Of a DNA stretch of 16,199 nt, positions 179 to 14,647 are shown one piece after another. Position numbers and translations under genes: made by a program. Numbering within the stretch: position 1 is the stretch's first letter; each line of letters begins with the position of its first letter. Origin of the DNA: a virus (Duplodnaviria > Heunggongvirae > Uroviricota > Caudoviricetes); IMG/VR virus record IMGVR_UViG_3300031555_010707. One strand, written 5' to 3'. The notes below the pieces were generated by a model that ran no database searches, was not told the DNA's origin, and was given only the letters and a program-made list of their open reading frames with translations.

Positions 179-622
179 TTATTTTTTAAGGCTATTCAGT
201 ATGACTTCGTGAACTGACACATAGTACATTCCGGGCTTGTAATCAGCGTATGGCACTTTTCTTTTCTGGTGGTAGATTTTTACATTGCTGCCATCATCAA
301 TGGTGTACCAGTGATACTTGACATTTGAATACCTGGGATTATTTATCCTATATTCTTGCCCAGGTGCAACAACATATGCTTTTGCATTTGCTTGTTCCTT
401 GTTGAATTCAATAAACGCTCCGTAATCACCGACCACGATCCTAACAAAACCATTTGATACTGTAGTTCCTTTAGATGTCTGTAGTTCTTTGTCTGTGCTG
501 CCAAGCAAACAGGAAGGAATATTATTTTTGAAATATTCCCTGTACTTCTTTGACAAATCTTTCGGCAAAGGACTATATCCATATCTTTGTGCCAGTTTTG
601 CCTCAATTCCCAGAGTATTCAT
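179..622 (-). CDS. Hypothetical protein, 147 aa
   Basis: ORF 179..646 in the track; likely start ATG 622 (MNTLGIEAK) overlaps the MTase stop as ATGA, with GAGG upstream. Aromatic-rich globular sequence, no family recognised. Confidence 0.8.
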   Translation of the reverse strand: MNTLGIEAKLAQRYGYSPLPKDLSKKYREYFKNNIPSCLLGSTDKELQTSKGTTVSNGFVRIVVGDYGAFIEFNKEQANAKAYVVAPGQEYRINNPRYSNVKYHWYTIDDGSNVKIYHQKRKVPYADYKPGMYYVSVHEVILNSLKK

Positions 623-2166
623 GCTGCAACCTCTTCTGCGGTGCATATCTCAGGCAGATTCGCACGAACCAGTGCCGCAGGAATTGGAGGACACACTGCA
701 TTGCCACAACGCGCCACTTGTTCACCACGAGGATATGCTTTTCCGTCTGCATCCACATCAATTATGTAGTCGGATGGGAACCCCTGAGCATTAAAGAGCT
801 CACGAGGCGTCAGCATCCGCAGTCCAATGTCAACAATCTGGTAGTCTACACCCTTAACCGTGACAAGAGCCATTCTATCTTTTGCTGTGATGGTCGGTGC
901 AGGCTCACTTACATCGGAGCCGCTTGTACCAGAGCCATAATACTTTGTAAGGAAAGCCCTGACTTCTCCGAAATGACCGAATCCTGCGGTGATTGTATTG
1001 AGCGGTTCTTCAAGAGTCTGGCCATCACAATGATTATTGAACTGCGTAATAAAAGCCGATGCCAATCCATATCGATTTGAAGCATCGACCGTCATCAAAG
1101 GCTTGTCCACTGCTTGTCCGCGCACATTCTCGGTTTGCTCCGAGTGATATTGAATCAGGCTTGGAGCAATCATCATGTGATGACCACCTGTGGTAATAGT
1201 ATTGGCTGGCTCAGTAGGCGAAGAACCTGCGGCATTCTCATTATTACACATCATGACAGGAGTGACAATTCCCATGCCATGCTTTGCAGTAATGGTATCC
1301 AATGGCTCAGAAACATCTTGTCCCCTGAAACCCTCTCCGCTATGATTCACTTGCACAATAAACGGCGTTGGGTTATCCAATACGAATTTCTGGATTCCTT
1401 TGGCGATGCGCCGCATCGTATTTTCTGAAAGTGGCCTGACGGCACGAACGCCGTACTGTTCCATGATTTCCTCGCTTGAAGAAAAGATGGAAGGACACGG
1501 AAGGTTGAAGTCAAGGATTTCTGAAACAGGAACCCACGGCAACTTGCTTCCATTCTTCACTTCATCAGAGTCTGCCGGCGCATGAGTTGGCTCAGGCCAA
1601 ATAATTGGTTTGCCATCGCATCTGGCAATCAAAAAGAACCTTTTACGGATTGTTGGAGCGCCATAGTCGCAAGCTCGAAGAATCCTGTGTTCTACATGAT
1701 ACCCGAGGGTTTCAAGAGAAACAATGAATTCCTGGAAGGTTTCTCCCTTATGTTCTTTATCAGGACGATTCTCTTCATTGAGCGGCCCCCAATCCATAAA
1801 CTCCTCGACGTTTTCAAGCATGATAACGCGAGGGTGAACTTCCTGAGCCCATCTTGTCGCTACCCATGCAAGCCCTCGAATATTCTTATCTACTGGCTTA
1901 CCGCCCTTTGCCTTACTGTGGTGCTTGCAATCAGGACTGAACCAAGCCAATGCAACAGGCCTTCCCGCGCACGCTTCCACCGGATCAACCTGCCAGACAT
2001 CCTCACAATAATGCTTCGTCGTAGGATGATTTGCTCTGTGCATAGCAATGGCGGCAGGATCGTGATTGATGGCAATATCTACACTACGTCCAATTGCCAT
2101 TTCAATACCTGTACTGGCTCCTCCGCCTCCAGCGAAGTTGTCAACAACGATTTCCCTTTTCTTCAT
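619..2166 (-). CDS. DNA (cytosine-5)-methyltransferase, orphan phage type, 515 aa
   Basis: Motif I DNFAGGGG, motif IV variant SPDC, motif VI ENV, motif VIII PTIRKRFF, motif IX RMLTPRE, motif X GNAVCPP; ATGA overlap with the upstream gene. No cognate endonuclease in the window. Confidence 0.95.
   Translation of the reverse strand: MKKREIVVDNFAGGGGASTGIEMAIGRSVDIAINHDPAAIAMHRANHPTTKHYCEDVWQVDPVEACAGRPVALAWFSPDCKHHSKAKGGKPVDKNIRGLAWVATRWAQEVHPRVIMLENVEEFMDWGPLNEENRPDKEHKGETFQEFIVSLETLGYHVEHRILRACDYGAPTIRKRFFLIARCDGKPIIWPEPTHAPADSDEVKNGSKLPWVPVSEILDFNLPCPSIFSSSEEIMEQYGVRAVRPLSENTMRRIAKGIQKFVLDNPTPFIVQVNHSGEGFRGQDVSEPLDTITAKHGMGIVTPVMMCNNENAAGSSPTEPANTITTGGHHMMIAPSLIQYHSEQTENVRGQAVDKPLMTVDASNRYGLASAFITQFNNHCDGQTLEEPLNTITAGFGHFGEVRAFLTKYYGSGTSGSDVSEPAPTITAKDRMALVTVKGVDYQIVDIGLRMLTPRELFNAQGFPSDYIIDVDADGKAYPRGEQVARCGNAVCPPIPAALVRANLPEICTAEEVAA
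859..1365 (-). repeat. Five tandem 32-36 aa repeats in the MTase variable (target recognition) region
   Basis: aa ~268-436: GQDVSEPLDTITAK, GSSPTEPANTITTG, GQAVDKPLMTVDAS, GQTLEEPLNTITAG, GSDVSEPAPTITAK. Confidence 0.75.
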
Positions 2167-3275
2167 GATAATCCCTCTTGCTGGTATTTCATATCAAAAT
2201 ATCTGGATGCCAATTCAGGCATCTCTTTTTCAAAAGCGCGTAGTCGCTTCATGGACGCGCATTCCTTCTTATATCGCTCCTGGTCTTTATGAACAAATTC
2301 CCGGAAGCTCTTTTTCTTAAAAAAAGACGGCTGATTGCACCATCTGGCAATCACCGTATACATTCCGCTATATGGACTTTCCTCGTATCGTGCGAATCTC
2401 ATTATGTATGGCAAGCATTGATATTTCATCAGAAGTTCAATTCGCTTCCACAAATCCCGCATGTCCTGTTTCCAGAAATCAGTATCCCATTTGCCTTGTC
2501 TATCATAAGCACAGAATACATAAAACTTAGGAATCCGGCTTGTATGTCTACGCAACAACTGTAGTTTTTTCTCTACTATGTCGTAGTCCTCGATGTTATC
2601 GAATGCAAAAATATAGTCTCCATCATACCGACTTGTAAAAAGGAGTTCGCATTTTTCGTCGTTGAGTAACCTTTCATCAAGCCCTTGCTTAAACTGAAAA
2701 GGTTTTCCCGTGGCCTGCAGTTGCAGGAGCAACGTTTTCCAATCCTTGCACCCAAGGAAATTATCGTCAAGAAGACATATCTTTGGACGTGAAGGATCAA
2801 CAAATTCTTCAAGCGAACTATGAACATCCACTTTATCATAATTCCTGTTTACGCAAAAAGGACATTTTCTGAAGCATCCGCGAGTGATAAATCCTATCGA
2901 ATAATCCGTATAGTATCGATAGTCATGAGGGTTATCCCCAGCAGCTATTCTTCTTGTTACCCATTCATCATACAGGTGGTAATCTGGAAATGCGTGTTCA
3001 ATTTCAGAAGGCAGAGGACGGGCTTTATCATAGTAAAACCCGGTTCCTCCGCACTGAATATGAGGATGATTCAATACATGCGCCGGAACTTCCGTATCCG
3101 AAAATACTTTTGATATGTACACGCGATCATAATCCAAGACGCTATCGTAATCAGTCAGCAGTTGAACATAATCGCCACGAACTTTATGATAGGAACTTAG
3201 CTTCATACATGCCAAATTCGGAAACATATGCCTGAAACGCCCAATTAAATCAGCGTCTGCGATTCCGATTTTCAT
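2163..3275 (-). CDS. Radical SAM protein, 370 aa
   Basis: CxxxCxxC motif GCFRKCPFC, downstream LLDDNFL and QGLDERL; N-terminal PNLACMKLSSYHK...GGTG domain. Start ATG 3275 (MKIGIAD) overlaps the folD stop as ATGA. Confidence 0.85.
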   Translation of the reverse strand: MKIGIADADLIGRFRHMFPNLACMKLSSYHKVRGDYVQLLTDYDSVLDYDRVYISKVFSDTEVPAHVLNHPHIQCGGTGFYYDKARPLPSEIEHAFPDYHLYDEWVTRRIAAGDNPHDYRYYTDYSIGFITRGCFRKCPFCVNRNYDKVDVHSSLEEFVDPSRPKICLLDDNFLGCKDWKTLLLQLQATGKPFQFKQGLDERLLNDEKCELLFTSRYDGDYIFAFDNIEDYDIVEKKLQLLRRHTSRIPKFYVFCAYDRQGKWDTDFWKQDMRDLWKRIELLMKYQCLPYIMRFARYEESPYSGMYTVIARWCNQPSFFKKKSFREFVHKDQERYKKECASMKRLRAFEKEMPELASRYFDMKYQQEGLS

Positions 3276-4156
3276 TCGGAAGATTTCCATGAAGACGCTT
3301 CATAAACGCTCCATTCAACTTGAGCAAGCTCGACAACATTGCGAACCAGATTTGCAACAGTAAGCACTCCGATTCCACCGGGGACGGTTGTGATAGCTCC
3401 AGCAACTTTCTCAACTTCATCAAATGCTACATCACCCACAACCTTTCCATTGTCCAGGCGGTTGATGCCTACATCGATAACTGTTGCTCCCGGCTTAACC
3501 ATATCTGCGGTTACAAAGCCCGCCTTACCAACTGCACTTACAAGGATGTCAGCCTGTCTTGTAATGTCGGCTAAGTTCTTGGTGCGTGAATGGCAAACAG
3601 TTACAGTGCAATCCCTTGAAAGAAGATTTAGAGCCGTTGGCTTACCAACAATAGAAGAACGACCGATGATAACAACATGCTCGCCGCTGAGCGAACATTT
3701 GCCGTATGCGCTGACAAGAGCATCCTCAATACCACGAGCGGTGCAAGGTACTGGGTAGAAAGGTTCACCAAGCATCAGCCAGCCCTGAGAACTTGCGGTT
3801 ATGCCGTCCACATCCTTATCAGGATGAATGTATTGAGGACAGTCCTTCAAATGTTCAGGTAGCGGACACTGAACCATTACGGCATGAACAGAGGAATTTG
3901 CATTCAAATCGAGAATATGCTTTCTGAGCTCCGCTCTGGAAATCGTAGCCGGAAAATGTTGATGCAGAAATTGTATTCCGCATTGCTCGCACGCCTTTTG
4001 CTTATTGCGAATGTAGATATTGCTGGCAGGATCATCACCTACCTGAATAACGACAATAGTTGGAATACAACCATGAGAACGAAGGACTGAGGCGGTAATG
4101 CGTGCTTCCTCTTTGATAGTAGACGCAATTGCCTTGCAGTCAATGATGTTAGCCAT
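3272..4156 (-). CDS. folD: Bifunctional methylenetetrahydrofolate dehydrogenase/cyclohydrolase, 294 aa
   Basis: QVGDDPASNIYIRNK (YxxxK), QCPLP, KDVDG, PCTARG, GRSSIVGKP, VTVCHSRT, VIDVGIN, VPGGIG; TGATG overlap with dUTPase. Confidence 0.95.
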   Translation of the reverse strand: MANIIDCKAIASTIKEEARITASVLRSHGCIPTIVVIQVGDDPASNIYIRNKQKACEQCGIQFLHQHFPATISRAELRKHILDLNANSSVHAVMVQCPLPEHLKDCPQYIHPDKDVDGITASSQGWLMLGEPFYPVPCTARGIEDALVSAYGKCSLSGEHVVIIGRSSIVGKPTALNLLSRDCTVTVCHSRTKNLADITRQADILVSAVGKAGFVTADMVKPGATVIDVGINRLDNGKVVGDVAFDEVEKVAGAITTVPGGIGVLTVANLVRNVVELAQVEWSVYEASSWKSSE

Positions 4157-4584
4157 CACTTCACCCCCGTAGAACCAAATCCTCCGCGATCCACATCTTC
4201 CATGTGCTCAACGGTTTTGAAGCTAACAGCATCCATCTTCTTGACAATTCTGAACTGGCAAATGCGGTCGCCTTCCTCAATGACGGTATCGCGCATTGCG
4301 AGCGCAGGGAAACGCCAGATGTCATTCTCACCGCAGTAAGAGTTATCGATGACGCCCATGCTGTTGGTCTGGAGAACACCCCACTTCTTGAAAGTAGAAC
4401 TGCGCGGCACAACATGCGCCTCATAGCCTTCGGGGAGCTTCATGGAGATGCCCAGAGAGATGAGTTTGAAATCTCCCGCCATCATTGAAACAGTTTCCGC
4501 AGCGCGAAGGTCAATCCAGTCGCCATTCTCGATGGCAGTTACCTTTTCCAGATTCTTGTTATGATACTTGATTTTGATTGTCAT
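4156..4584 (-). CDS. dut: Trimeric dUTPase, 142 aa
   Basis: Motifs [31 protein letters not shown]; SD GGAGG upstream of ATG 4584; ATGA overlap. Confidence 0.95.
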
Positions 4585-4853
4585 GAATGAGCCTCCAGTT
4601 TGATACACATATTCTCCCACTTCTTATAAGCATCGAGGTACACTTCATTCTTATCGCCGTTGAAAGTGATCTCGTAATACATACCGTCAGCAATTCTGGT
4701 GCTGAGAAGCGCCTTATTGTTTTGCAGAGTCTTGCAAGACCAGACGATAAAAATATCGCTGACAGTGATTCTGGGATCAGTGGCATCCCTGTGTGTGTTA
4801 TAATAATCCTCTACCAGCCGAAAGCAGAGGTCATGAAAATCCTTACTGCCCAT
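4581..4853 (-). CDS. Phage hypothetical protein, DUF6275-like, 90 aa
   Basis: [16 protein letters not shown]...[26 protein letters not shown] resembles DUF6275 proteins (recognised from memory, no search run); strong SD AAGGAGG before ATG 4853. Confidence 0.75.
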
Positions 4854-4866
4854 TGATGGTTCCTCC

Positions 4867-5499
4867 TTAAGATTCACTGTGACGAGAAATCCATGAAGAC
4901 GTATGAGGATTCCATACAGCAGTGTCCCCATACGGGTATTCTCGTCTCAATTCATAGGTGTGCTGAGGTTCAGCCTTTTGCTTTTCCTCAAAAATGATAA
5001 GAGCCCTTTCTTCATTGGAAAAGGCTGCTTCAAAACCGCGATGCTTGCTTCTAATAACAAACTGAGGTTTGTTCATTGCCGTTAGTTCTGAGCGAAGTCC
5101 CATCAGAATGACACCGAGATGGTTTTCTCCCTTCTTCTTTCGCGTATCAACGCCCCAATATGTATCACCCCATGTATTGCCTTCGATCAATTCTGCGTCG
5201 CCGGTAGCAACAAGTTTCTTGGCCAGGTGTACATTCTGGACAAATTTTGCCCGGACAATTTCCTCCATGATTCTGAGCTTGACTTGTTCCCAGTCAGGGC
5301 GGAGTTTAACAAGCTGACCATGATGCTTTGCCTCTGAGGCAGAATGTTCTTGGAAAGACAGCGCTTCCTCTGCAGAAAGACATTTCATAGCCTGATATGC
5401 CGCCTCAGAGTTTTTGAATGTCATTCCATTGTAGTAAACTTTGCAGTCATAGAAGTTGCTGAGGAATCCATATTCCCCGCGAAAACTATCGATAGTCAT
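4867..5499 (-). CDS. NADAR (YbiA-like) family protein with ~70 aa C-terminal extra domain, 210 aa
   Basis: FLSNFY, SEAAYQAMK, LRPDWEQVK...M...AKF, TGDAELIEGNTWGDTYWG, GENHLGVILM; SD GGAGG before ATG 5499. Confidence 0.9.
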   Translation of the reverse strand: MTIDSFRGEYGFLSNFYDCKVYYNGMTFKNSEAAYQAMKCLSAEEALSFQEHSASEAKHHGQLVKLRPDWEQVKLRIMEEIVRAKFVQNVHLAKKLVATGDAELIEGNTWGDTYWGVDTRKKKGENHLGVILMGLRSELTAMNKPQFVIRSKHRGFEAAFSNEERALIIFEEKQKAEPQHTYELRREYPYGDTAVWNPHTSSWISRHSES

Positions 5500-5680
5500 T
5501 CTGACGCCTCCAAGTTGAGTTTTTTGCTTTTGTAAACATGGTGGTTGGTGCATGATAAAGCCTGTCGTCATCAGTCCTTATCATCGTCTGCTGGGCACAT
5601 GCAGTAGGATAATACTGTTTTACCACTACGCCTTTTACCCCAGTAGTGCAAACTACTCTATCTCCGATATGAATATCCAT
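5486..5680 (-). CDS. Small hypothetical protein, 64 aa, possible SH3/KOW-like barrel
   Basis: Track ORF 5486..5686; SD GAGGTG fits ATG 5680 (MDIHIGDRVVCTTGVKGVVVK). Confidence 0.7.
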   Translation of the reverse strand: MDIHIGDRVVCTTGVKGVVVKQYYPTACAQQTMIRTDDDRLYHAPTTMFTKAKNSTWRRQNDYR

Positions 5681-5695
5681 TAACATGCACCTCGG

Positions 5696-5836
5696 TTAAA
5701 TATCCCATGGGTCACAGTTGTCACAATCTGGATCGGCATTATTATACCGGCAAAGAGTACAGCAAAACCTTGCCTCCCATCCATCACAACGATCCCTATC
5801 GCAACAGGAATCACAAGGGTAATCGTCATCGAACAT
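5696..5836 (-). CDS. Cys/Asp-rich peptide, 46 aa (not in ORF track)
   Basis: Manual translation MFDDDYPCDSCCDRDRCDGWEARFCCTLCRYNNADPDCDNCDPWDI*; SD GGAGG at 5845-5849; exactly fills the gap between neighbours. Confidence 0.7.
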   Translation of the reverse strand: MFDDDYPCDSCCDRDRCDGWEARFCCTLCRYNNADPDCDNCDPWDI

Positions 5837-5851
5837 AATATTGCCTCCGCA

Positions 5852-6361
5852 TCATAGCCTTGTCCATCGATATATTCTCACAATCGGAGAATCCTGGAGA
5901 TTAACGCAAAGCAGGACATCTCCTCTTGAGTGCATTGTGCCATGAAGCCCAATGAGAGAATCTCCGAAATCAATACAATCAACAATTTCTACGAGTTCAA
6001 GAATTGTGCGGCTGTCATACTCTGAAGAAATGTATGCCCAGTCTCCTAATGCAACCGAACCCCAATCAACTTCGGTATTTGCAACAATCCTGCCGCCATT
6101 GAATAATCCATAGAAACAACAGGCATTTCCATCGTGGAAGCGCCAAAGCTCTGTTTCGATGCCGGAATTGGGAATAGATAATGTTCCATAATAGATTGCA
6201 TCTTCGCTCATCGGAGCCATGCTCATAATCACGTCGTTATCGCTGCTGCCATTTGTCATTGCAACGGCACCAAGCACTAAAAGAATAGCAACAACGGCAA
6301 CAACGATGCCTTCGATTATGATTCTTCTACTGCTGATAACATGCTCTTCCATTGGTATCAT
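5852..6361 (-). CDS. Membrane-anchored protein, possible degenerate sortase-like fold, ~169 aa
   Basis: N-terminal TM IIIEGIVVAVVAILLVLGAVAM; GTLSIPNSGIETEL, LGDWAYI and DVLLCV...RIYRW echo the sortase strand pattern; ATGA overlap at 6358-6361 (alternative ATG 6352). The CDS is solid; the fold call is weak. Confidence 0.7.
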   Translation of the reverse strand: MIPMEEHVISSRRIIIEGIVVAVVAILLVLGAVAMTNGSSDNDVIMSMAPMSEDAIYYGTLSIPNSGIETELWRFHDGNACCFYGLFNGGRIVANTEVDWGSVALGDWAYISSEYDSRTILELVEIVDCIDFGDSLIGLHGTMHSRGDVLLCVNLQDSPIVRIYRWTRL

Positions 6362-7035
6362 ACTGCCTCCTTGTATGTATTTAGCATACTCCACCTAAAC
6401 CTTCGGTCGCACGGAACTAACCCTTGTTCTTCAAGGACAAATCGCAGATCGTAATCATGCACCGTATAGCCGCGAGGGTTAAATGATACAGGAGAATCTG
6501 AATCCCATTTCAGCAAAATTCCCCAAAGATCAGGATAATTTCTGCGAAGCAGTCTCAGTTGCTCTATGCTCTGATTATGACAAAACCAGCAGCCTCCGCG
6601 TGTAGCAGTCGTATAGATAGGCGAAAGCAAATCATTGTCTTCGCACCACTTACGGCAATCTGCTTCAGTCCAGCCAAGGGCGGCCAGAGGAGAAACTTTT
6701 GTCTTGCCGTCCAGCCGAGCCAACCTCTCAGGTTCATCGGCGGCTATGCCTAAATAGCTTACGACAATATTTTTATCCGCCCCTTGCCGCTTGGGGCTAT
6801 TCAAAAAGTCGATAGTGCCGCCATTTTCAGTCGGTCGTTGCACCAAGCACCCCGTATCATCGGGAACCCGTATATTTGATCCTTGCGAGTTCCCGATGTG
6901 CGAGCTTTGTAGAACACGCTCTCGTAAGTTAATCTTGCTTCCGTATTTGAGCTTCTTGCACCATGCTCCTCGCACCATAGGGAAGCCTCGGATTGAGCCG
7001 ATGAACTTACCTGATGTGAGCGTTTGATAGAACAT
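6358..7035 (-). CDS. PAPS-reductase/DndC-like protein, C-terminal reading frame (cassette 1 in frame plus core C-terminal domain)
   Basis: YLGIAADEPER, SPLAALGWTEADC, PIY, RGGCWFC (Fe-S-type CxxC). The frame is open back into the (AG)11 tract, so it is most likely the continuation of 6801..7298 rather than an independent gene. Confidence 0.8.
   Translation of the reverse strand: MFYQTLTSGKFIGSIRGFPMVRGAWCKKLKYGSKINLRERVLQSSHIGNSQGSNIRVPDDTGCLVQRPTENGGTIDFLNSPKRQGADKNIVVSYLGIAADEPERLARLDGKTKVSPLAALGWTEADCRKWCEDNDLLSPIYTTATRGGCWFCHNQSIEQLRLLRRNYPDLWGILLKWDSDSPVSFNPRGYTVHDYDLRFVLEEQGLVPCDRRFRWSMLNTYKEAV
6779..6822 (-). promoter_or_regulatory. Putative -1 recoding/slippage signal (GGCGG, 10 nt, TTTTT, 5 nt, GCCCC/GGGGC hairpin)
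   Basis: mRNA GGCGG CACUAUCGAC UUUUU GAAUA GCCCC AAGCGGCAA GGGGC; a -1 shift or +1 T here joins cassette 2 to the C-terminal frame. Function is inferred. Confidence 0.35.
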
Positions 7036-7298
7036 GGACTCGTAGCTCTCTCTCTCTCTCTCTCTCTGCCTTCGGCAGCATAGTGTTCAACCTCAATGCC
7101 CCAACGTCTTTTGATGATTTCGTCGGCTTTTGCCTTGAATTCGACCATCGGAGGTAAATCAGCCGGAATGGTGTCGGTTGCCCATACTTCTGCATGGATA
7201 ATCCGATCCAGCGGCCAACCAAGTTGTTCTATTGCACCGAGACAGGCAAGGCTGTCCTTGCCGTATGAGAGAGACAGGATATGCTCCGTCCTATCCAT
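6801..7298 (-). CDS. PAPS-reductase/DndC-like protein, N-terminal reading frame (PP-loop plus cassette 2 in frame), stops at 6801
   Basis: PP-loop LSLSYGKDS; reads RERERER through the (AG)11 tract, then LTYESVFY...GFPMIRGAWCNDRLK, then TGA. Confidence 0.8.
   Translation of the reverse strand: MDRTEHILSLSYGKDSLACLGAIEQLGWPLDRIIHAEVWATDTIPADLPPMVEFKAKADEIIKRRWGIEVEHYAAEGRERERERATSPCSIKRSHQVSSSAQSEASLWCEEHGARSSNTEARLTYESVFYKARTSGTRKDQIYGFPMIRGAWCNDRLKMAALSTF
6809..7044 (-). repeat. Diverged tandem duplication, 118-nt period, two peptide cassettes in different frames
   Basis: Cassette 1 starts with TAC at 7044 (YESMFYQTLTSGKFIGSIRGFPMVRGAWCKKLK); cassette 2 starts with TAC at 6926 (YESVFYKARTSGTRKDQIYGFPMIRGAWCNDRLK). 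TGG codons at 6963 and 6845, also 118 nt apart. Confidence 0.92.
7046..7067 (-). repeat. Intragenic dinucleotide microsatellite (AG)11
   Basis: Plus strand (CT)11 at 7046-7067; the only long simple sequence repeat seen in the window. Confidence 0.97.
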
Positions 7299-7301
7299 AT
7301 C

Positions 7302-7688
7302 TCAGATTTCCTTTATTTCAATCAGATCGCTGAATCGTTCTTTGATTGCTTCATTGAATTGTACTATGACGTTTTGCTCAACCCATTCGTAGACATACTG
7401 GTACGCCAAAGCCTTTCTGCGATGATTCTTATATTCACGCGAACGCAATCCACGCTTTGCTACTCTGGTCATTGGGAATCCCAATCTGCGCTTGACATTG
7501 TTAGGCATCAGAAAAAGAAGCTCCTGCTCGGAGCATTTCCTTAATAAAGAGATTCCGAATGGATACTTGAGGAAAAATTTGCAAATCTTTGCTTTGTGCC
7601 CATAAGCAAGTTGATATAACAGGTCTGGATGAATAATTGTATTATTGCAAGAGAAGGTAGCTGTACTGCACAACTTTATGCTTTTCAT
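7302..7688 (-). CDS. Hypothetical basic protein, 128 aa
   Basis: Track ORF 7302..7721; start ATG 7688 overlaps the upstream stop as ATGA. No family recognised. Confidence 0.75.
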   Translation of the reverse strand: MKSIKLCSTATFSCNNTIIHPDLLYQLAYGHKAKICKFFLKYPFGISLLRKCSEQELLFLMPNNVKRRLGFPMTRVAKRGLRSREYKNHRRKALAYQYVYEWVEQNVIVQFNEAIKERFSDLIEIKEI

Positions 7689-7909
7689 CGCAAGATCCAC
7701 TCCTGCTTGCTGGTATCCCATTCGTAGGTCAATCCATCATAGCTGCGGCATTCGAGGAACAGCTCGCCATACATGCGAAGGTTCTTTGGATCGGAAATAA
7801 AGGCCAACGCCTCTGCTTCGTTTCGGAAGGTTTTCACCTTGCTGTACGAAGAATGACCGTTAGTGACATCGTAGCTATCCTCACGGAGCACTACATACTT
7901 CGATTTCAT
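7685..7909 (-). CDS. Hypothetical protein, 74 aa, paralogous to the NADAR C-terminal extension
   Basis: SD AGGAG before ATG 7909 (MKSKYVVL); gapless match of FxNExxAL...G.T..W.{6}WIxR to aa 160-206 of the NADAR protein. Confidence 0.8.
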   Translation of the reverse strand: MKSKYVVLREDSYDVTNGHSSYSKVKTFRNEAEALAFISDPKNLRMYGELFLECRSYDGLTYEWDTSKQEWILR

Positions 7910-7947
7910 GGTATCTCTCCTATAAAATGTTCGTTTTATGAAAGGTA

Positions 7948-8451
7948 TCAAGGTTGATAAAGCACGATTTTTCCAGCTTTTTGACTTTCTTGAATATCGA
8001 TGATCCGCTGATTGCGGCTTCCGCGATAACTCAGCGTAATATCTCTCTGATCTAAGATAAACGGCCCGTCAACGAGCACATCACACATGACCAGAAGCTC
8101 GCGCATCGAAGGATCTGCGATGATTTCTTCGTAAGTAAAGCCGCTATATACCCACACCGTAGATGCAGGCGACAGCTCTTTCAGTTCTTTGATGAACGGG
8201 ATGATAGAATCTGCTGAATACATCGGATCTCCTCCGCTTAATGTGACGCCCGAAACAAAAGGCGTCTCTCTGACGTATTCTGCAATCTGTTCCTGAATCT
8301 CAGAACCAAATGATTTGCCGGTTTTGAAATCGTGAGACTCCGGGTTGTGACATCCTTTGCAATGATGATTACATCCGCTGAAGAAAATCACAACCCGAAC
8401 GCCATCGCCATCAACGATGGATTCAAAGTTGATGCCGACGATATTTGCCAT
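7948..8451 (-). CDS. nrdG: Anaerobic ribonucleotide reductase activating protein
   Basis: ESIVDGDGVR, FSGCNHHCKGCHN (CxxxCxxC), LSGGDP, DVLVDGPF, GSRNQRII; TAATG-coupled to nrdD. Confidence 0.97.
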   Translation of the reverse strand: MANIVGINFESIVDGDGVRVVIFFSGCNHHCKGCHNPESHDFKTGKSFGSEIQEQIAEYVRETPFVSGVTLSGGDPMYSADSIIPFIKELKELSPASTVWVYSGFTYEEIIADPSMRELLVMCDVLVDGPFILDQRDITLSYRGSRNQRIIDIQESQKAGKIVLYQP

Positions 8452-10697
8452 TAGGCACCGCCTTGCGCGAAGGAGGAATAGTTGCTGTGCTTGACTCTAT
8501 CCAAGCATTCTGCAATCTTGCCCTGATTGAATCTCCTGAAATCGCTGGTCAGATAGCCGGTAACACGGCGCAGACGCTGGATTTCGGTGTTGCCACAACG
8601 CGGACAGTTATATTCGATTTCTCCTTGATAGCCACATTTCAGGCAGGTATCAATCGGGAAATTGAAGGCAAGGTATGGAATATCCAGAGACATTGCGTAA
8701 TCAACGATGCTTGCAATTGCCTTCTGGTTCTGCATAACAGCAGATTCCAATTCGATATATGTAATACAGCCAGCAGTAGCGTACTTGCAGAAGGGCGCTT
8801 CAGTTTCCAGTTTCTTATTGATAGAAACCTTCTGCCATACAGGCACATGATGGCTGTTGGTGATATACTCCCTGTCAGTGATATGCGGAAGCACACCAAA
8901 TTCATCTCTGAGAGCTTTCGCATAGGTACGGCACAAGGATTCTGCCGGGGTTGCATAGCAACCGAAGTTCAGATTGTGGCGCTCAGAAGCATCCTTTGCC
9001 CACTGATAAATGTGCGCAACGACAGACAGAGCAAAATCGTGAACCTTCGGATCTTCAGAGTGATCTTTTCCGAACAGAGCCTGACACATTTCAGCAATGC
9101 CGATATAGCCCATTGCGAGCGTTCCGTGCTTCATAGATTCATAGACGCCCTTGAAATTGGCTTCCTTGTAATCCGCAACCGTACCATTCTGATACATGAA
9201 TGGAGCGCACTGAACGGGCTGGGCGCAGATATGATAGAAGCGGTCAACCAGAGAGGTTTCGGTTAACGCGAGTACCTCATCCAGCTCCTGCCAGAATCCT
9301 GCAATATCCGCAACTTTACGTTCGCCCAAGCAGATGCCATGACGAATACCGATCTTGGGAAGATTCATGGTAGTCGGGCAAACATTGCCGCGACCGATCT
9401 TGGAATATCCAAGGCCGTGACGATCTCTGCCCATCATGGTGCGGCATCCCATCGTTGCGCATTCCGTGTCAGGATCACCGGGAGTTTCTTCATTCTGTGA
9501 GAAATCGCAGTTGACGATATTAGGGTAGATACGATGAGACAAAGACTTCTCAGCAAGCTGACGCAGATCATAGTTCGGCGTACCAGGCTTATCGTTAACG
9601 CCTTTCTTGTACTTGAAGATAGAGATCGGGAAAATTGAGGTCAGATTATACTTGCCGATACCTGCGAGGCTTGCCTCCAGCATCCAGCGCGTAACGAGTC
9701 TGCCTTCAGGAGAAGTGTCAGTGCCAAAGTTGATAGAAGAAAAAGGAACCTGACTGCCGGCGCGTGATTCAAGGGTGTTCAGATTATGATACAGTCCCTG
9801 AGCGGCCTGCCGTCCTTCCTTCTCCAGCATATCCATTGCATACTGCTTTGCCTTGGGGAAAGCGTTGAAGTTCGGATGTTCGATGCTTGCCATCGTCTTA
9901 ATACAGGTATCGTACCAATCATCGGGGAGACGAATTGCCTGCTTCTCTTCCTCAGTGACCAGATACTTGACGCCTTCCCTAAAGTGCTTGTAGAAACTCT
10001 TCTTCACATAGGGCGCAAGATCATAATCGATATGGGCGGAAGCAACACCTCCGAACTGAACCTGTGACTGACACTGGAAAATAACAGCGACAAGCTGACA
10101 GGCAGTAGAGAAACTATTCGCCGCACGGACATCACCGTTTCGGGTGCTGAACCCCTGACCCAGTAGTAGCTTCAGATCAGCAAACAGGCAGTTGTGGCTG
10201 CCGATGTCGTATTCAGAAAGGTCATGAATGTAGATTCTTGATTCACGGTGCGCCCGAGAGGTTTCAGGTCGCATAAAGGCATTCAGAGAAATGTTCTTGT
10301 GCAGGATATTTGCGCTTTCAAACTTCTTGCCGCTGAAACTGATTTCATCAATGTTGGCATTGGAGTTCTGGACATTGGTTCCGCAGATTACATTCTCAAT
10401 CTGCCGATTGATCTTGCTATTGCGTTCTCGATCCTGACTGCGCTTTTCACGGTATGTAATGTATTCCTTGGCCGTCTGCTTGAGCGAAGATTTCATCAAC
10501 TTCATCTCAACCATATCCTGTATCTGCTCAACTTCCAGAATATCTGCGGGGAAATTTGCAATCTCATCTGCAATTTTCTCAACAATTTCTGGGCTGTTTT
10601 GACCAGCACGCTTCATAGCATGACCAATTGCTTCGATGATTTTGTGCTTGTTGAATGGCTCAACCCTGCCATCCCTTTTCTTGATTTCAGTTACCAC
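8451..10697 (-). CDS. nrdD: Class III anaerobic ribonucleoside-triphosphate reductase, 748 aa
   Basis: N-terminal ATP cone (KKRDGRVEPFNKHKI), HNCL, MGCRT, Zn site CLKC/CPRC, glycyl-radical motif RRVTGYL; SD AGGAGG with GTG start. No intron or intein evident. Confidence 0.98.
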   Translation of the reverse strand: MVTEIKKRDGRVEPFNKHKIIEAIGHAMKRAGQNSPEIVEKIADEIANFPADILEVEQIQDMVEMKLMKSSLKQTAKEYITYREKRSQDRERNSKINRQIENVICGTNVQNSNANIDEISFSGKKFESANILHKNISLNAFMRPETSRAHRESRIYIHDLSEYDIGSHNCLFADLKLLLGQGFSTRNGDVRAANSFSTACQLVAVIFQCQSQVQFGGVASAHIDYDLAPYVKKSFYKHFREGVKYLVTEEEKQAIRLPDDWYDTCIKTMASIEHPNFNAFPKAKQYAMDMLEKEGRQAAQGLYHNLNTLESRAGSQVPFSSINFGTDTSPEGRLVTRWMLEASLAGIGKYNLTSIFPISIFKYKKGVNDKPGTPNYDLRQLAEKSLSHRIYPNIVNCDFSQNEETPGDPDTECATMGCRTMMGRDRHGLGYSKIGRGNVCPTTMNLPKIGIRHGICLGERKVADIAGFWQELDEVLALTETSLVDRFYHICAQPVQCAPFMYQNGTVADYKEANFKGVYESMKHGTLAMGYIGIAEMCQALFGKDHSEDPKVHDFALSVVAHIYQWAKDASERHNLNFGCYATPAESLCRTYAKALRDEFGVLPHITDREYITNSHHVPVWQKVSINKKLETEAPFCKYATAGCITYIELESAVMQNQKAIASIVDYAMSLDIPYLAFNFPIDTCLKCGYQGEIEYNCPRCGNTEIQRLRRVTGYLTSDFRRFNQGKIAECLDRVKHSNYSSFAQGGA

Positions 10698-10710
10698 TTT
10701 GAGCCTCCTG

Positions 10711-11004
10711 TTATGTATTGATATAAGCGCCTTGCCCCGACAAGAATAGATTTAATCCGCCGATGGCATTCTGCATAGCGCTGATACGATTTTCCATAGA
10801 GGCAATTTGTGTTTTCACATGTTCCTCATTACTGGAAATATAATATCCCTTTTGATCCGAACAGACGGGAATACCAGAGCTTCGCATCTGGTTGATATAC
10901 CGTCTGACCTCAGCGCCTTTGATTCCAAGTCGCTGAGAAATTCCTGAAGCCGTGATTCTTTGGTGAATGTCACGCGGAATCAAATTAAGAACCATGTCAT
11001 ACAT
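10711..11004 (-). CDS. Winged helix-turn-helix DNA-binding protein, 97 aa
   Basis: ITASGISQRLGIKGAEVRRYINQMRSSGIPVCS...KGYYI pattern; SD GGGAGG upstream. Confidence 0.75.
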   Translation of the reverse strand: MYDMVLNLIPRDIHQRITASGISQRLGIKGAEVRRYINQMRSSGIPVCSDQKGYYISSNEEHVKTQIASMENRISAMQNAIGGLNLFLSGQGAYINT

Positions 11005-11620
11005 GAGCTACTTCCTCCCTGTGTATTGGGGCACTTGCAAGTTGCTCATAGGCTTCATCGTAATGCTGCGTGATTTTTGAGATTCGTTCATAGACTTCTT
11101 TCCATGTATGCACGCGAATCCATTTACTCTCATGATTGGCTCGATTATGTGGAGCATCCATCAGGAACGGCTGAGAAATATCGCTATTCCAATTCATGAG
11201 GTTATGCGGCGCATCATCGATGATGAAATCACCACGCACCATGCTCTTGTTATGAGCAACGATTACATCCGTCCATTTGAGAAATGGGAAATGCCGAAAT
11301 AACGCAAGCTCCATCTTGTCCTGTAAGCCTTTGTAGTGCGACGCAGTGCAAATGTAAACATGATGCCCATCGTCAATAAGTCTTTTTACATATTCAACCG
11401 CGCCTGGCTTTGGCATTACTGTTTTCCAGAATTCTCTCAAAGACAAAGGAGCAAAAATTTCTTCTTTTGCAAGAGTTGGAAAAGCAATGCTCATATCCCA
11501 TTCTGTAACAGATTCAGGATCGACATTAAGTCCATGAGACGTATTGAGCCACTGTACCCAAGCGGGCACAAGCGACTCAAGCGTATCGTCCATGTCGATC
11601 AGAATATCGAAACTCCTCAT
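10997..11620 (-). CDS. HAD-superfamily 5'(3')-deoxyribonucleotidase (NT5C-like), 207 aa
   Basis: ILIDMDDTL (DxDxT), PKPGAVE, ICTAS, K...GDFIIDDAPHN; ATGA overlap. Confidence 0.9.
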   Translation of the reverse strand: MRSFDILIDMDDTLESLVPAWVQWLNTSHGLNVDPESVTEWDMSIAFPTLAKEEIFAPLSLREFWKTVMPKPGAVEYVKRLIDDGHHVYICTASHYKGLQDKMELALFRHFPFLKWTDVIVAHNKSMVRGDFIIDDAPHNLMNWNSDISQPFLMDAPHNRANHESKWIRVHTWKEVYERISKITQHYDEAYEQLASAPIHREEVAHV

Positions 11621-12933
11621 GCGGCAGGCTCCTGATCCTCATGACTCCAGTTGCTGACCATATTGATGACGCACTGATTCAGATCATCAAGGTTGCCATT
11701 GTTTACGATAGTCTCGTCGGGAACCACGTCTTTTAGAGCTGTCTCAGAAGGATGGTTGCGCTGTTCCTCGGTAAGGTCGTTTTCGACAGGACGAGTGATG
11801 TGTATATGCTGGACATCAAATCCAGCCTTCTTCAATTCACTGATCTCGTTCGGGAATCTTACATCGGGAATAAGCACATAATCCCATTCATTGGGAAACA
11901 GCTTCAAAACTTTAATGATAAAGGCAACCCAGAAGTCAGGTTCCTGCTTACGAATTACGTCAGTACCAACATATTGCAGAACATGACGACCCTTCTCATC
12001 TTTCTGACCATCCCAACCGAAGAGGGACTTACACATGAATTTGAGAAGATCAGCATTATGAATCGTGAGAACACGATGGTTCCACTCTTCTTCCAGTTCT
12101 CTCTTCATCATGTCAGCCGTTGTATCCTTACCGGCTCTTGCCTGACCAGAGATGCAAACTACCTTTGCGTGCTGCTTCTGAACAGGCTCCTTGACGAAGA
12201 TCAATTCGTCTACAAGGGGCAGCGTTTTGACCCATGCCATGAAATGAACCAAGGTCGGATCATCTTTGCCAGACCATTCATTCTGCTTATGGCCTTTGCG
12301 CTGACGAGTCATAGCAAAAATATTCTCGTATGTCAGCGTAACGGTACGCATCTGAAGCCAGGATTCAGGCAGCCAGCGAATCAGCTCCTTCCAATACTTC
12401 TTGGCGAGCTTCTTGTCCGTATCTTTATAACGCAGATAGAGCTGACGAAGCTGTTCCAGGTCATCGATAAAGTTATCGACTCTCATGCTGAGACTTGCTT
12501 CGTCAATCATATCAAGACCTTTGCAGAAGTCATCCGTTTCAAAGCAATCAATCGTGATGGGAGTCGTATGAATGGTGTGCATTGTTGAGGTGGAATTGGC
12601 AGTAGTGCCAACCTTATATGTATCGAATTCCTTCCACCAATAAAGAGGTGCCGTAATATCAACAGACACAAAAATCTGGCGGAGGAACTTACGATGCTCA
12701 CTGCCCCCCTTAATGAGAGTTTGTGCGAGCTTCAAATCCTTGGGGCCGATATATGGAATACAGGGCTTACCAAAGCCGTCGAAATAGCTGCAATGTTCGC
12801 AATGCTGATTTGGGTCATCGGAGTGACAATCATCCGAGAAGTTACTGTCACTGAGATGCCAGCTGTTCTTCGGATTTCTCATACCTCGAAAGGCATGTTC
12901 AAAACCCCATACTTGGGTTCTTTCAAACTTCAT
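11617..12933 (-). CDS. Fusion: divergent ThyX-like (flavin-dependent thymidylate synthase-like) domain plus deoxynucleoside monophosphate kinase, 438 aa
   Basis: aa 1-246: HRKFLRQIFVSVDITAPLYWWKEFDTYKVGTTANSTS, LPESWLQMRTVTLTYENI, QRKGHKQNEW. aa ~255-438: P-loop SGQARAGKDT, RHVLQYVGTD, IPDVRFPNE, HPSE, IVNNG. Confidence 0.8.
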   Translation of the reverse strand: MKFERTQVWGFEHAFRGMRNPKNSWHLSDSNFSDDCHSDDPNQHCEHCSYFDGFGKPCIPYIGPKDLKLAQTLIKGGSEHRKFLRQIFVSVDITAPLYWWKEFDTYKVGTTANSTSTMHTIHTTPITIDCFETDDFCKGLDMIDEASLSMRVDNFIDDLEQLRQLYLRYKDTDKKLAKKYWKELIRWLPESWLQMRTVTLTYENIFAMTRQRKGHKQNEWSGKDDPTLVHFMAWVKTLPLVDELIFVKEPVQKQHAKVVCISGQARAGKDTTADMMKRELEEEWNHRVLTIHNADLLKFMCKSLFGWDGQKDEKGRHVLQYVGTDVIRKQEPDFWVAFIIKVLKLFPNEWDYVLIPDVRFPNEISELKKAGFDVQHIHITRPVENDLTEEQRNHPSETALKDVVPDETIVNNGNLDDLNQCVINMVSNWSHEDQEPAA

Positions 12934-12961
12934 AAGTCACCATCTTTCTGAAAAGGGCTTG

Positions 12962-12990
12962 AAAAAGCAGCGCGATATTTCACGCGCTGC
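12962..12990 (-). terminator. Rho-independent terminator
   Basis: Minus strand GCAGCGCG-tgaaatat-CGCGCTGC (8-bp GC stem) followed by TTTTT; begins 6 nt after the stop of the 54-aa ORF. Confidence 0.8.
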
Positions 12991-12996
12991 AATAAC

Positions 12997-13161
12997 TCAA
13001 TTCTTCCGGTTCTTTCTGCTGACAACAAGATCTGTGAAGTTCTTAATTGTCAGAATAAGCCAGTATGCAACGATAAATGCCCACATGTTTTGCTGCTGCA
13101 AAAGGCCAGCGAACACAATCGCTGCATCGATACCGAGAAGGAAGATAAGAAACTGGCTCAC
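12997..13161 (-). CDS. Small two-TM membrane protein, 54 aa (not in ORF track)
   Basis: GTG start overlapping the upstream TGA (GTGA), SD GGGTG; MSQFLIFLLGIDAAIVFAGLLQQQNMWAFIVAYWLILTIKNFTDLVVSRKNRKN*. Confidence 0.75.
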   Translation of the reverse strand: MSQFLIFLLGIDAAIVFAGLLQQQNMWAFIVAYWLILTIKNFTDLVVSRKNRKN

Positions 13162-13385
13162 TTCTTATCACCCGTAATAGGCTGGCCATCGGCAAGCTTA
13201 GTGCAGATTTTGCAGAAAGCAATGACGTCTTCCAGTCTCTGTTCAACGGTTTTGCTTTCGTCGGTTGCCTTATCAAGAACAACCTTACACATAGCATATG
13301 CACCCTGCGCGACTCCTGCGGTATGTTGCTTTTGCAAGCCGCCCGTTACGACGCGCTTGAATACCTGATCGTTATGTTTTGCCAT
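13158..13385 (-). CDS. Hypothetical protein, 75 aa
   Basis: SD GGAGG before ATG 13385; coupled to the downstream ORF. Confidence 0.75.
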   Translation of the reverse strand: MAKHNDQVFKRVVTGGLQKQHTAGVAQGAYAMCKVVLDKATDESKTVEQRLEDVIAFCKICTKLADGQPITGDKK

Positions 13386-13414
13386 GAATACCTCCGCAGC
13401 CTTATGACTGCTTA

Positions 13415-13690
13415 TTATGTATTATCAAAGTCCTCTGCAAGAAGTTCTGTCTCACAGAGATCGACTTCTCCTCGGAGCTTGTATTCTCCCTTGTTCGGAG
13501 AAACTTTGCATCCGGGAATAAAGCTGTCCATCAGCTTATCGAAACAGTCAATGCAGATATGCGCTTCAAGATGTGTCAGGTCATACTTGGAACCGTAGCC
13601 AACATGATAGTCAAAGCCAAAGTCCTCCTGCTCGTCCAGTTCATCAAACACCTTTCCGCACACATTACAGACCAATTTTGCCTTAAGCAA
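13415..13690 (-). CDS. Small putative zinc-binding protein, 91 aa
   Basis: CNVC...CIDC pair; likely TTG start at 13690 with GAGG upstream (track start 13780 lies inside the phosphoesterase gene). Confidence 0.75.
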   Translation of the reverse strand: MLKAKLVCNVCGKVFDELDEQEDFGFDYHVGYGSKYDLTHLEAHICIDCFDKLMDSFIPGCKVSPNKGEYKLRGEVDLCETELLAEDFDNT

Positions 13691-14426
13691 TGGATTTCGC
13701 CTCACTTTCAGCCAATTTGGATTCCTGATCGTCAGGAGAAATCGCAATGATGTCCTCGAATAAAAACCGCATTTTATCAATTACCTTATCGGTATGATAG
13801 TGGCCGCAGTACCATTTGTGATAATGCGTATTGTCCTCTATATGATCGAGCCATTCTTCAGTGCTGGTATCCACTGTGCTCTGGTCGATGCCGGAGAGGA
13901 ACATTTCGGTTGGTATATATTTGAGGGGGCATGTGTGTGATAAAATCACATCAACATTGTGATTAAGGGAAGCAAGTTTCGCTTCCACTCTCGCCTTAGT
14001 TTCGTCATCAGGCTGTTCATCTGAGAACCACAGACGCCCGTTGCCAAGACGATAATACTTGTCTACGCTATAAGCACCGCCGCAAACAAGACATTTGTGA
14101 CCAGCAAAGTCATAGATCGAACCATCTTTGGCAAATATGATGTTCGGATAGCTCTTCTGCATGTAGGCCATATCTCCATGGAATTCCACGAGTTCATACC
14201 CGAGCTCCACGCTTGGTCTTCGTTCATGATTGCCGTGAACACAAAAAAGTGTAATAGGCAATTTTGAAAGGCTCTTTTTGAAGTAATCATCCCGGTAATC
14301 ACCAAGATAATTGATTCCTGCATCCCCAAGGATAATCATAACATCGTTTGTGGTTGTATGATGCTTTCTGCAGAACCACTGAATGCGAGAAAAATCCCTG
14401 TGAGTATCGCCTGTAATATAGATCAT
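13683..14426 (-). CDS. Calcineurin-like metallophosphoesterase, 247 aa
   Basis: Motifs GDTH, GD, GNHE, SHTCP, GHYH; SD AAGGGGG. Confidence 0.92.
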   Translation of the reverse strand: MIYITGDTHRDFSRIQWFCRKHHTTTNDVMIILGDAGINYLGDYRDDYFKKSLSKLPITLFCVHGNHERRPSVELGYELVEFHGDMAYMQKSYPNIIFAKDGSIYDFAGHKCLVCGGAYSVDKYYRLGNGRLWFSDEQPDDETKARVEAKLASLNHNVDVILSHTCPLKYIPTEMFLSGIDQSTVDTSTEEWLDHIEDNTHYHKWYCGHYHTDKVIDKMRFLFEDIIAISPDDQESKLAESEAKSIA

Positions 14427-14438
14427 CTGTCATCCCCC

Positions 14439-14639
14439 TTATTTCCGAGTGGAAGAGAGAACAATCACAGCGATGAGGAGCATAAAAAGAGAAATCCAAG
14501 TGGGAATCAAGACTGCCCACCACGACCAGCTGATAACGTCAAAGAATTTCAAAACTGCGAGAACAATCTGAAGTACCAGAAGCACATCTGTTCCGCCAGA
14601 ATCTTGACTTGTTTGATTCGTATTCAAGTTGCATACCAT
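14439..14639 (-). CDS. Small phage-type membrane protein, ~62-66 aa
   Basis: GG...LQIVLAVLKFFDVISWSWWAVLIPTWI pattern, two hydrophobic segments; start uncertain (ATG 14639 or TTG 14627). Confidence 0.75.
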   Translation of the reverse strand: MVCNLNTNQTSQDSGGTDVLLVLQIVLAVLKFFDVISWSWWAVLIPTWISLFMLLIAVIVLSSTRK

Positions 14640-14647
14640 CCTTTCAA

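Follow-up and report, generated by a model that had tools for sequence, protein, structure and literature searches.

The window, by which we mean the whole stretch of DNA analysed here, comprises 16,199 nucleotides (nt) of a virus of the Caudoviricetes and is contained in a 29.8-kb metagenome-derived provirus record of IMG/VR (IMGVR_UViG_3300031555_010707). Its minus strand carries a gene for a PP-loop protein, in which an AG repeat is followed by two related segments, here called cassettes, that lie in different reading frames, and the gene may choose between them by a change of frame. An earlier note on this DNA had given the layout as an N-terminal PP-loop domain, (AG)11, cassette 1, cassette 2, a T5 run with a hairpin and a C-terminal domain, and every element was found where it had been placed.

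7298..6358, minus strand: whole gene, with the ATG start at 7298 and the stop codon at 6360-6358
7068..7298, minus strand: N-terminal PP-loop part, constant in all phases of the repeat, with SLSYGKDS at 7274-7251 by translation
7067-7046, minus strand (coding strand): putative selector (AG)11, a perfect repeat with 100% matches in Tandem Repeats Finder (TRF)
7047-6928, minus strand: cassette 1 (K-type, ..GFPMVRGAWCKKLKYGSKIN), SYESMFY..GFPMVRGAWCKKLK.., which shares the frame of the C-terminal domain
6929-6804, minus strand: cassette 2 (N-type, TYESVFYKARTSGTRKDQIYGFPMIRGAWCNDRLKMAALSTF), TYESVFY..GFPMIRGAWCNDRLKMAALSTF, in the +1 frame, which at n=11 coincides with that of the N-terminus
6801..6807, minus strand: U-run and candidate slip site ACU UUU UGA, where T5 (6807-6803) overlaps the stop TGA (6803-6801)
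6797-6779, minus strand: hairpin GCCCC-AAGCGGCAA-GGGGC (N9 loop), a 5-bp GC stem that begins 5 nt past the U-run
6358..6804, minus strand: C-terminal part (LNSPKRQGADKNIVVSYLGIAADEP..DCRKWC..RGGCWFCHNQ..), which also contains LGIAADEP and would be common to both isoforms

The translations agreed with the frames assigned in that note, cassette 1 lying in the frame of the C-terminal domain and cassette 2 in that of the N-terminus. Frame 1 runs from the ATG through the SLSYGKDS N-terminus and the GRERERER encoded by (AG)11. Past the repeat it gives 39 stop-free residues (ATSPCSIK..TEARL), which are cassette 1 read out of frame, and then TYESVFYKARTSGTRKDQIYGFPMIRGAWCNDRLKMAALSTF, ending at ACT TTT TGA. 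Frame 3 gives SYESMFYQTLTSGKFIGSIRGFPMVRGAWCKKLKYGSKIN, which is cassette 1, then 42 stop-free residues that are cassette 2 out of frame, and after this spacer LNSPKRQGADKNIVVSYLGIAADEP...RGGCWFCHNQ... up to the stop of the gene. The remaining frame ends early at LRVHVLSNAHIR*, 12 codons past the repeat. The two cassettes form a diverged direct repeat whose best blocks are 74-78% identical and whose starts lie 118 nt (= 1 mod 3) apart, and the frame offset from cassette 1 to cassette 2 is located in unique sequence.

For comparison, 240 related loci were assembled from viral, metagenome and genome collections, most of which have a single in-frame cassette. In near-identical prophage loci from independent assemblies, the DNA of these relatives showed n = 8, 10, 11, 13, 14, 15 and 16, and n = 12 and 17 were inferred from called products of 97 and 169 amino acids (aa). 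All three phases of the repeat therefore occur across assemblies, with recorded products of 312/314/316 aa, 165/167/169 aa and 97/99 aa. A query with the 225-aa open reading frame (ORF) retrieved a 314-aa protein with 99% identity, the 90% cluster of which holds lengths of 312, 314 and 316 aa (GRERERES, GRERERERES and GRERERERERES), while a sister cluster holds the 165-, 167- and 169-aa products with the LSTF end. The arithmetic of the earlier note was thus seen in natural proteins. Its single uninterrupted ORF exists at 312 aa (n=10), 314 aa (n=13) and also 316 aa (n=16). Repeats of n=11, 14 and 17, which put cassette 2 in frame as claimed, give 165, 167 and 169 aa ending ..LSTF*, and the early truncation predicted for n = 0 mod 3 (LRVHVLSNAHIR*) has a natural example at n=15 in the relative L241. 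The 313 aa calculated for a joined cassette-2 product also hold, being 165 aa plus the 148 aa that follow from TTG 6804.

L241 (n=15) and L243 (n=14) are 99.7% identical over 1978 nt and differ by a sole gap of one AG unit (2 nt). Among the assembled contigs of sequencing runs, those of two DNA runs had n=11 and those of another had a form of +6 nt; the contig of an RNA run terminates at the repeat. The 165-aa ORF of n=11 was the commonest state among assemblies. The repeat is a perfect one inside an ORF, its unit is not a multiple of 3, and the (AG)n tract is probably a hypermutable selector.

It could be argued that the frameshifts are sequencing or assembly errors, or that the gene is a decaying pseudogene, since dinucleotide and homopolymer tracts are error-prone and the provirus record is derived from a metagenome. 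We consider this scarcely credible. At least 24 contigs, which come from several sources and studies and reach 358 kb in length, carry the exact n=11 product, and this indicates that n=11 is not a rare variant and did not arise by faulty assembly. Different n values stand on DNA that is otherwise 99-99.7% identical, the offset between the cassettes does not lie in a repeat, and every part of the gene is under purifying selection, as described below. A uniform (AG)10 with single-cassette homologues, which the earlier note had named as the outcome that would speak against its reading, is not what the contigs showed; multi-frame homologues exist as well as the n=11 contigs.

Selection was followed frame by frame. 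On Nei-Gojobori counts from an alignment of six relatives with 80-99% identity, the ratio of nonsynonymous to synonymous polymorphism (pN/pS) of cassette 2 was 0.31 in its own (+1) frame, 1.72 in frame 0, the frame of the long ORF, and 1.19 in the third frame. Cassette 1 gave 0.20 in its native frame and 1.26 in the +1 frame, and the region past the T-run gave 0.19 in frame 0. The N-terminal part is under purifying selection, with synonymous/nonsynonymous changes of 8/0, 4/0, 7/0 and 6/0 against the relative L078. Between the window and L078, 14 of the 19 changes in cassette 2 are synonymous in its own frame (P=1e-4 by simulation) and 2 of the 19 in frame 0. A sliding map of the selected frame passed from the N-terminal frame to frame 0 over cassette 1, to +1 over cassette 2 and back to frame 0, the last change falling at the T-run. 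The same pattern was seen in L083/L161 and in one three-frame lineage. Over a larger distance, in 13 sequences of about 11 lineages, cassette 2 had a mean identity of 0.44 with 8 invariant columns in its own frame and of 0.29 with 3 invariant columns in frame 0; cassette 1 in its native frame had 0.50 and 7 invariant columns. On these comparisons, cassette 2 is a coding sequence under purifying selection in its own frame and not a relic.

The path that leads to cassette 2 pointed in the same direction. In 113 distinct single-cassette genes, the +1 frame over the cassette (about 49 codons) was stop-free in 6/113, and the mean number of stops was 2.5. Of the 17 distinct genes that have a cassette 2 in +1, 16 had a stop-free +1 frame across cassette 1, while the +2 frame of these genes had the usual number of stops. 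This open path fits ribosomes that enter +1 at the repeat and have to reach cassette 2, and it argues against a silent second copy. It also argues against programmed +1 ribosomal frameshifting where the two cassettes meet, which would put both in one protein and which was rejected because the +1 frame is kept free of stops from the repeat onwards.

A silent cassette 2 deserves attention in its own right. It could be a recombination donor, or the remainder of an in-frame tandem duplication as in the nd4 homologue, with coding-like variation brought in by recombination from relatives that have it in frame, and the repeat would be a plain ON/OFF element. Genes with both cassettes in frame do exist (nd4/L001, L189, L203, L210, L115 and P0079), the region is mosaic, with P0048, P0095 and P0101 reading parts of cassette 2 in different frames, and L077, discussed further below, has stops in the cassette-2 path. 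We nevertheless hold a silent copy to be quite improbable. The out-of-frame layout is present in about 10 lineages, in which cassette 2 is about 44% identical and the motif is kept by all, and the stop-free +1 path would have no role. Cassettes that are 74-78% alike at best are a poor substrate for gene conversion and no homogenisation was seen, and the change of the selected frame falls exactly at the U-run.

An alignment of 24 multi-frame relatives showed ...LK...(V/A/C)F at the end of the last out-of-frame cassette, on a T4 run that is invariant in 24/24, and a 5-bp GC-rich hairpin 5-6 nt past this run. The Phe codon of the slip site is TTT in 24/24, although TTT makes up 37% of the Phe codons elsewhere in these genes. 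The consensus of the relatives at the site is G(G/A/U)G UUU UC; the window has U UUU UGA and L078 the full heptamer U UUU UUA. In the hairpin, 94% of cells are paired, and the middle pair is C-G in 11, U-A in 8, G-C in 2 and A-U in 1, a covariation score attained by 0/500 shuffles. Read in frame 0, the 5' base of the covarying pair opens a Pro/Ser/Thr/Ala codon and its partner closes a Gly codon; the covariation is therefore not explained by protein coding. RNAalifold retained 3/5 of the hairpin pairs, and the hairpin is present in the minimum free energy fold of the region. The module of U-run and hairpin was found in 25/29 distinct multi-frame loci and in 0/113 canonical genes, which are without the entire F.SP..QGA segment. 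Re-pairing of tRNA-Phe by -1 in the window would give ...LSTF-LNSPKRQGADKN..., and two in-frame homologues, P0101 and P0095, have a continuous ..WCTSDLKRKAIKHTF-SNGPSPSGG.. with spacing identical to that of the predicted -1 product, ..WCNDRLKMAALSTF-LNSPKRQGA...

Taken together, we propose that a prophage of gut Clostridia carries a three-state cassette switch in which the repeat selects the cassette and a frameshift brings ribosomes back into the C-terminal frame, and on balance we judge this to be the probable explanation. Replication slippage in (AG)n would set the frame downstream of the PP-loop N-terminus. In state A (n = 1 mod 3), cassette 1 would be read natively, the DNA of cassette 2 would serve as a disordered spacer, and the C-terminal Fe-S/GCWFC domain would follow, giving 312-316 aa. 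In state B (n = 2 mod 3, the state of the window), the DNA of cassette 1 would be a stop-free +1 spacer and cassette 2 would be native; at ACU UUU UGA a fraction of the ribosomes would slip -1 on tRNA-Phe into the C-terminal frame, with the hairpin as stimulator. This would yield a 313-aa enzyme in which cassette 2 replaces cassette 1, and non-slipping ribosomes would make the 165-aa product. In state C (n = 0 mod 3), the stop 12 codons after the repeat would turn the gene OFF. Both isoforms would be active. That (AG)n toggles between two cassettes by choice of frame, as the earlier note had suggested, is now supported by four independent kinds of comparative evidence: polymorphism of n in all phases, selection on cassette 2 in its own frame, the stop-free +1 path, and the U-run with its covarying hairpin.

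The gene could also vary in phase with no return to the C-terminal frame. State A would then be the enzyme, state B a functional truncated protein of 165 aa and state C OFF, with the U-run and hairpin serving otherwise; the 165-aa protein might be regulatory, dominant-negative, or the partner of a C-terminal piece made separately. This is attractive in that a 165-aa ORF is what n=11 encodes, in the commonest assembly state, and any importance of this product would be enough to account for selection on cassette 2 in its own frame. In the window, the stop of this ORF is overlapped by a TTG (TTTTTGA), at which gene callers put the 148-aa ORF. Several observations make such an arrangement unlikely in our view. 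The +1 frame of most lineages extends 10-20 codons beyond the U-run with no conserved stop or restart, and neither the TTG nor the internal ATG of cassette 1 is conserved. A split would cut the PP-loop alpha/beta domain ahead of the GIAADE strand, and it would leave unexplained why the invariant TTT-T with its covarying hairpin is confined to multi-frame genes. In-frame homologues have the uninterrupted sequence that a -1 product would be predicted to have. A split protein made by restart at TTG 6804 or at ATG 7035 was rejected as a general mechanism on the same lack of conserved starts. Length variation of the T-run in DNA was likewise rejected as the means of return, as the frame relation is the same in all relatives and the clusters have no in-frame cassette-2 ORF on record.

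Several points weigh against the proposed switch. We infer the -1 return, and with it a full-length cassette-2 protein, from sequence conservation alone. A last cassette in +2, as some relatives have, would call for a less orthodox shift of -2 or +1 at this site. Conservation is limited to the U UUU tetranucleotide, and there is no classical X XXY YYZ heptamer except in L078. The stem has just 5 bp, and the predicted fold of the 71-nt region is no more stable than that of shuffled sequences (z = -0.59); the case for the hairpin rests on covariation. The L076 lineage showed a weaker constraint on cassette 2 (P=0.10). In L077, a close relative with n=16 and cassette 1 in frame, the cassette-2 path has two stops (1431-1750), one within the spacer and the other in GFPMI*GAWC; the second isoform may have been lost in this lineage. 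Finally, the AlphaFold2 (AF2) model is not confident on cassette 1 itself.

Recurrence among homologues extends the picture. The YE..FY..GFP..WC motif recurs out of frame in about 10 diverged lineages, which is far beyond chance, and the upstream simple sequence repeat (SSR) recurs with it, so that both features the earlier note had proposed to look for in homologues were found. Directly ahead of the first cassette, at the place of the selector, 27/31 multi-frame loci and 5/142 canonical ones carry an SSR, either (AG)5-16 or G7-G10. In four relatives (L086, L087, L089 and L164), a tract of G8-G9 precedes three half-cassettes of the GFP..WC..LK type, which lie in frames 0, +1 and +2. No stop interrupts any of these frames between the tract and the U-run, and each half-cassette of the three-frame lineage is selected in its own frame. 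There are two recurrent cassette types, WCK(K/H)LK and WCN(S/D)RLK, which stand alone in 12 and 65 single-cassette genes, respectively, and many multi-frame genes pair one cassette of each type, in either order.

These relatives may be members of a "reading-frame multiplexer" family, in which one or sometimes two (AG)n or poly-G tracts would select among two to three segment versions, one per frame, and the U-run with the hairpin would reset ribosomes arriving in +1 or +2. The reset would occur by -1 and by -2 or +1, giving up to three isoforms and an OFF state, and the device would serve for bet-hedging in the arms race of phage and host. We give this wider generalisation an even chance.

In L004, L007, L010 and L173, there are two hypermutable tracts per gene (G8+G8, AG7+G10, AG10+AG6 and G10+G9) between the VEH and GIAADE motifs, together with three to four cassette copies; the arrangement suggests combinatorial switching. 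L008 (3200-3260) is without an upstream repeat and without the U-run and hairpin, and instead, behind an intact +1 cassette 2, (AG)6 stands where the return would take place. The same switch may be wired differently here. In the single-cassette homologue L069 (3090-3140), a break at CCAAAAAAC (A6) separates the cassette from the C-terminal domain; this may be an error, a plain frameshift or a further slippery site for return.

Phage nd4 was the only find, as a weak match, when phage GenBank DNA was searched. In its homologue (L001:1947-1962, OR777945.1), which is annotated as two hypothetical proteins, both cassettes are in frame, and the codon of the invariant GCWFC Trp is TGA. L203 and L210, near-identical prophages of metagenome-assembled genomes (MAG), have TGG at that Trp. 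The TGA of nd4 is a point nonsense mutation or a record error, not recoding.

A 13-nt inverted repeat was also noted inside cassette 2 (window 6858-6870 / 6886-6898, over TSGTRKDQIYGFPM), with 92% complementarity and a 15-nt loop. By eye in the alignment, it is mostly retained in L078 through wobble-compatible changes and is broken in L076, and it may be a chance occurrence.

With regard to the enzyme, SLSYGKDS, a PP-loop of the SxGxDS type, is invariant in 47 homologues, and the Cys motifs WC, DC..WC and GCWFC are conserved. Residues 172-278 of the homologue P0002 matched PHROG 424 ("PAPS reductase", 1.2e-27), and phiCD119 gp64, another homologue, matched PF01507 (1.8e-8). Pfam gave no match for the two ORFs of the window, for P0002 or for the 314-aa protein. 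The label of DndC or SspD that the earlier note had attached to this family was not borne out: NCBIfam returned no DndC or SspD model and only insignificant matches to PRK13795 hypothetical proteins, far below curated cut-offs, and no dndA/B/D/E or sspA/B/C was seen in the 16-kb window. The AF2 model had a mean pLDDT of 67.7, with a confident core and low confidence at residues 76-177. In the state-A protein, residues 130-177 had a pLDDT <50, cassette 2 read in frame 0 being predicted disorder. The top Foldseek matches were TtuA, LarE, MnmA and NcsA, which are [4Fe-4S] PP-loop sulfurtransferases, and these were weak (E 1e-4 to 1e-3, TM 0.31-0.39).

Judging from family and neighbourhood, it is a reasonable guess that the enzyme acts in nucleic-acid or nucleotide modification. 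The switch probably exchanges a substrate- or cluster-proximal segment of a nucleic-acid- or nucleotide-modifying enzyme of the PP-loop/[4Fe-4S] type. This is based on the occurrence of the two cassette types, each found alone in single-cassette homologues. The terms "active-site-proximal loop" and "DNA-modifying", as used for this gene before, are putative labels, and the AF2 model did not resolve the cassette.

The window forms a single co-directional block at 619-16183. It contains a C5-cytosine methyltransferase (MTase), a radical SAM protein (PHROG 9298), FolD, a dUTPase/DCD-like protein, DUF6275, NADAR, NrdG and NrdD, and further a helix-turn-helix (HTH) protein, NT5C, a dNMP-kinase fusion, a metallophosphatase and Pol III alpha. 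PHROGs gave no match for the flanking ORFs 7302-7721 and 5852-6394, so that these two do not point to a pathway. The block may encode a pathway for DNA precursors or DNA modification, of which the switchable enzyme would be a part. The host belongs to the gut Clostridia, probably the Oscillospiraceae.

Genes with this layout are labelled split or "frameshifted pseudogenes" in phage and MAG records, and the present gene, if our reading is right, bears on the phage auxiliary genes that are widely reported as "PAPS reductase / cysH". It has the PP-loop and the Cys motifs in common with the superfamily of PAPS reductases and PP-loop ATP pyrophosphatases (PF01507, PHROG 424), and differs from it in the missing Pfam match and the weak structural matches of the window protein.

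SSR contingency loci of phages were first reported in 2025, as ON/OFF systems in T2 agt and T4 rIIA (Gomez, Barrick & Waters, bioRxiv 10.1101/2025.10.21.683753; PMC12633550). The present gene resembles them in that the frame would be shifted reversibly by a hypermutable repeat within the ORF, repeat number is the sole difference between near-identical genomes, and the logic would be one of bet-hedging. Those loci act by ON/OFF or by tuning of level, whereas here two of the three phases would each decode a different segment version under selection, and relatives of the gene use all three phases.

The logic of the switch has an experimental precedent in mod1 of Mycoplasma bovis, where an (AG)n repeat is combined with an (A)5T site and -1 rescue of the +1 phase was demonstrated by mass spectrometry (Bhatti & Saikrishnan, bioRxiv 10.64898/2026.04.01.715767). 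Both genes have (AG)n in a gene for a modifying enzyme, nucleic-acid-modifying in the case of mod1, and a homopolymer of 5 nt. In mod1, unlike the present gene, the homopolymer is upstream of the repeat, the frameshifted peptide amounts to a few junk residues, and the outcome is graded expression of one protein with no exchange of domains.

As Wang et al. are said to have described in 1999, the futA/futB/futC genes of Helicobacter pylori have a poly-C tract and a downstream -1 frameshift cassette. The order is similar to ours, a hypermutable tract being followed by a slippery run and a structure able to return off-phase ribosomes. The slip site is A AAA AAG in fut and U UUU here. The stretch from tract to slip site in fut is without alternative functional coding, whereas here one full cassette is present per frame. 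None of the phage contingency loci, mod1 or fut carries alternative functional coding with one version per frame. The earlier note knew of no described equivalent, and in the literature we likewise found no description of an architecture with one cassette version per frame.

Frameshift sites on U-runs are known from T7 gene 10 (G GUU UUC, -1) and arterivirus nsp2TF (G GUU UUU, -2 and -1). The predicted slip shares with these the re-pairing of tRNA-Phe on a U-run with a downstream stimulator. In T7 gene 10 and nsp2TF the signal gives a fixed ratio of two products from one frame; here we propose that it would reset ribosomes that are in different frames. If this is true, it would be a recoding signal acting on ribosomes that arrive out of frame, and a natural case of sustained selection on two or three frames of one DNA stretch.

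Module switching at one locus is also carried out by invertases, recombination or reverse transcriptase, as in hsdS shufflons, phase-variable mod alleles and diversity-generating retroelements. The likeness would lie in one locus with alternative specificity modules for an enzyme or binding protein and in stochastic heritable change, and the difference is that the choice here would be made by reading frame. No recombinase or reverse transcriptase domain was found among the scanned ORFs of the window, and the inverted repeats found do not flank the cassettes. If the proposal is true, the reading frame would be the address of the module, the slippery repeat its selector and the frameshift signal the reset, and phase variation would extend from ON/OFF to the choice of isoform. 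It would then be a third route to interchangeable modules at one locus, beside recombination or inversion and retro-mutagenesis.

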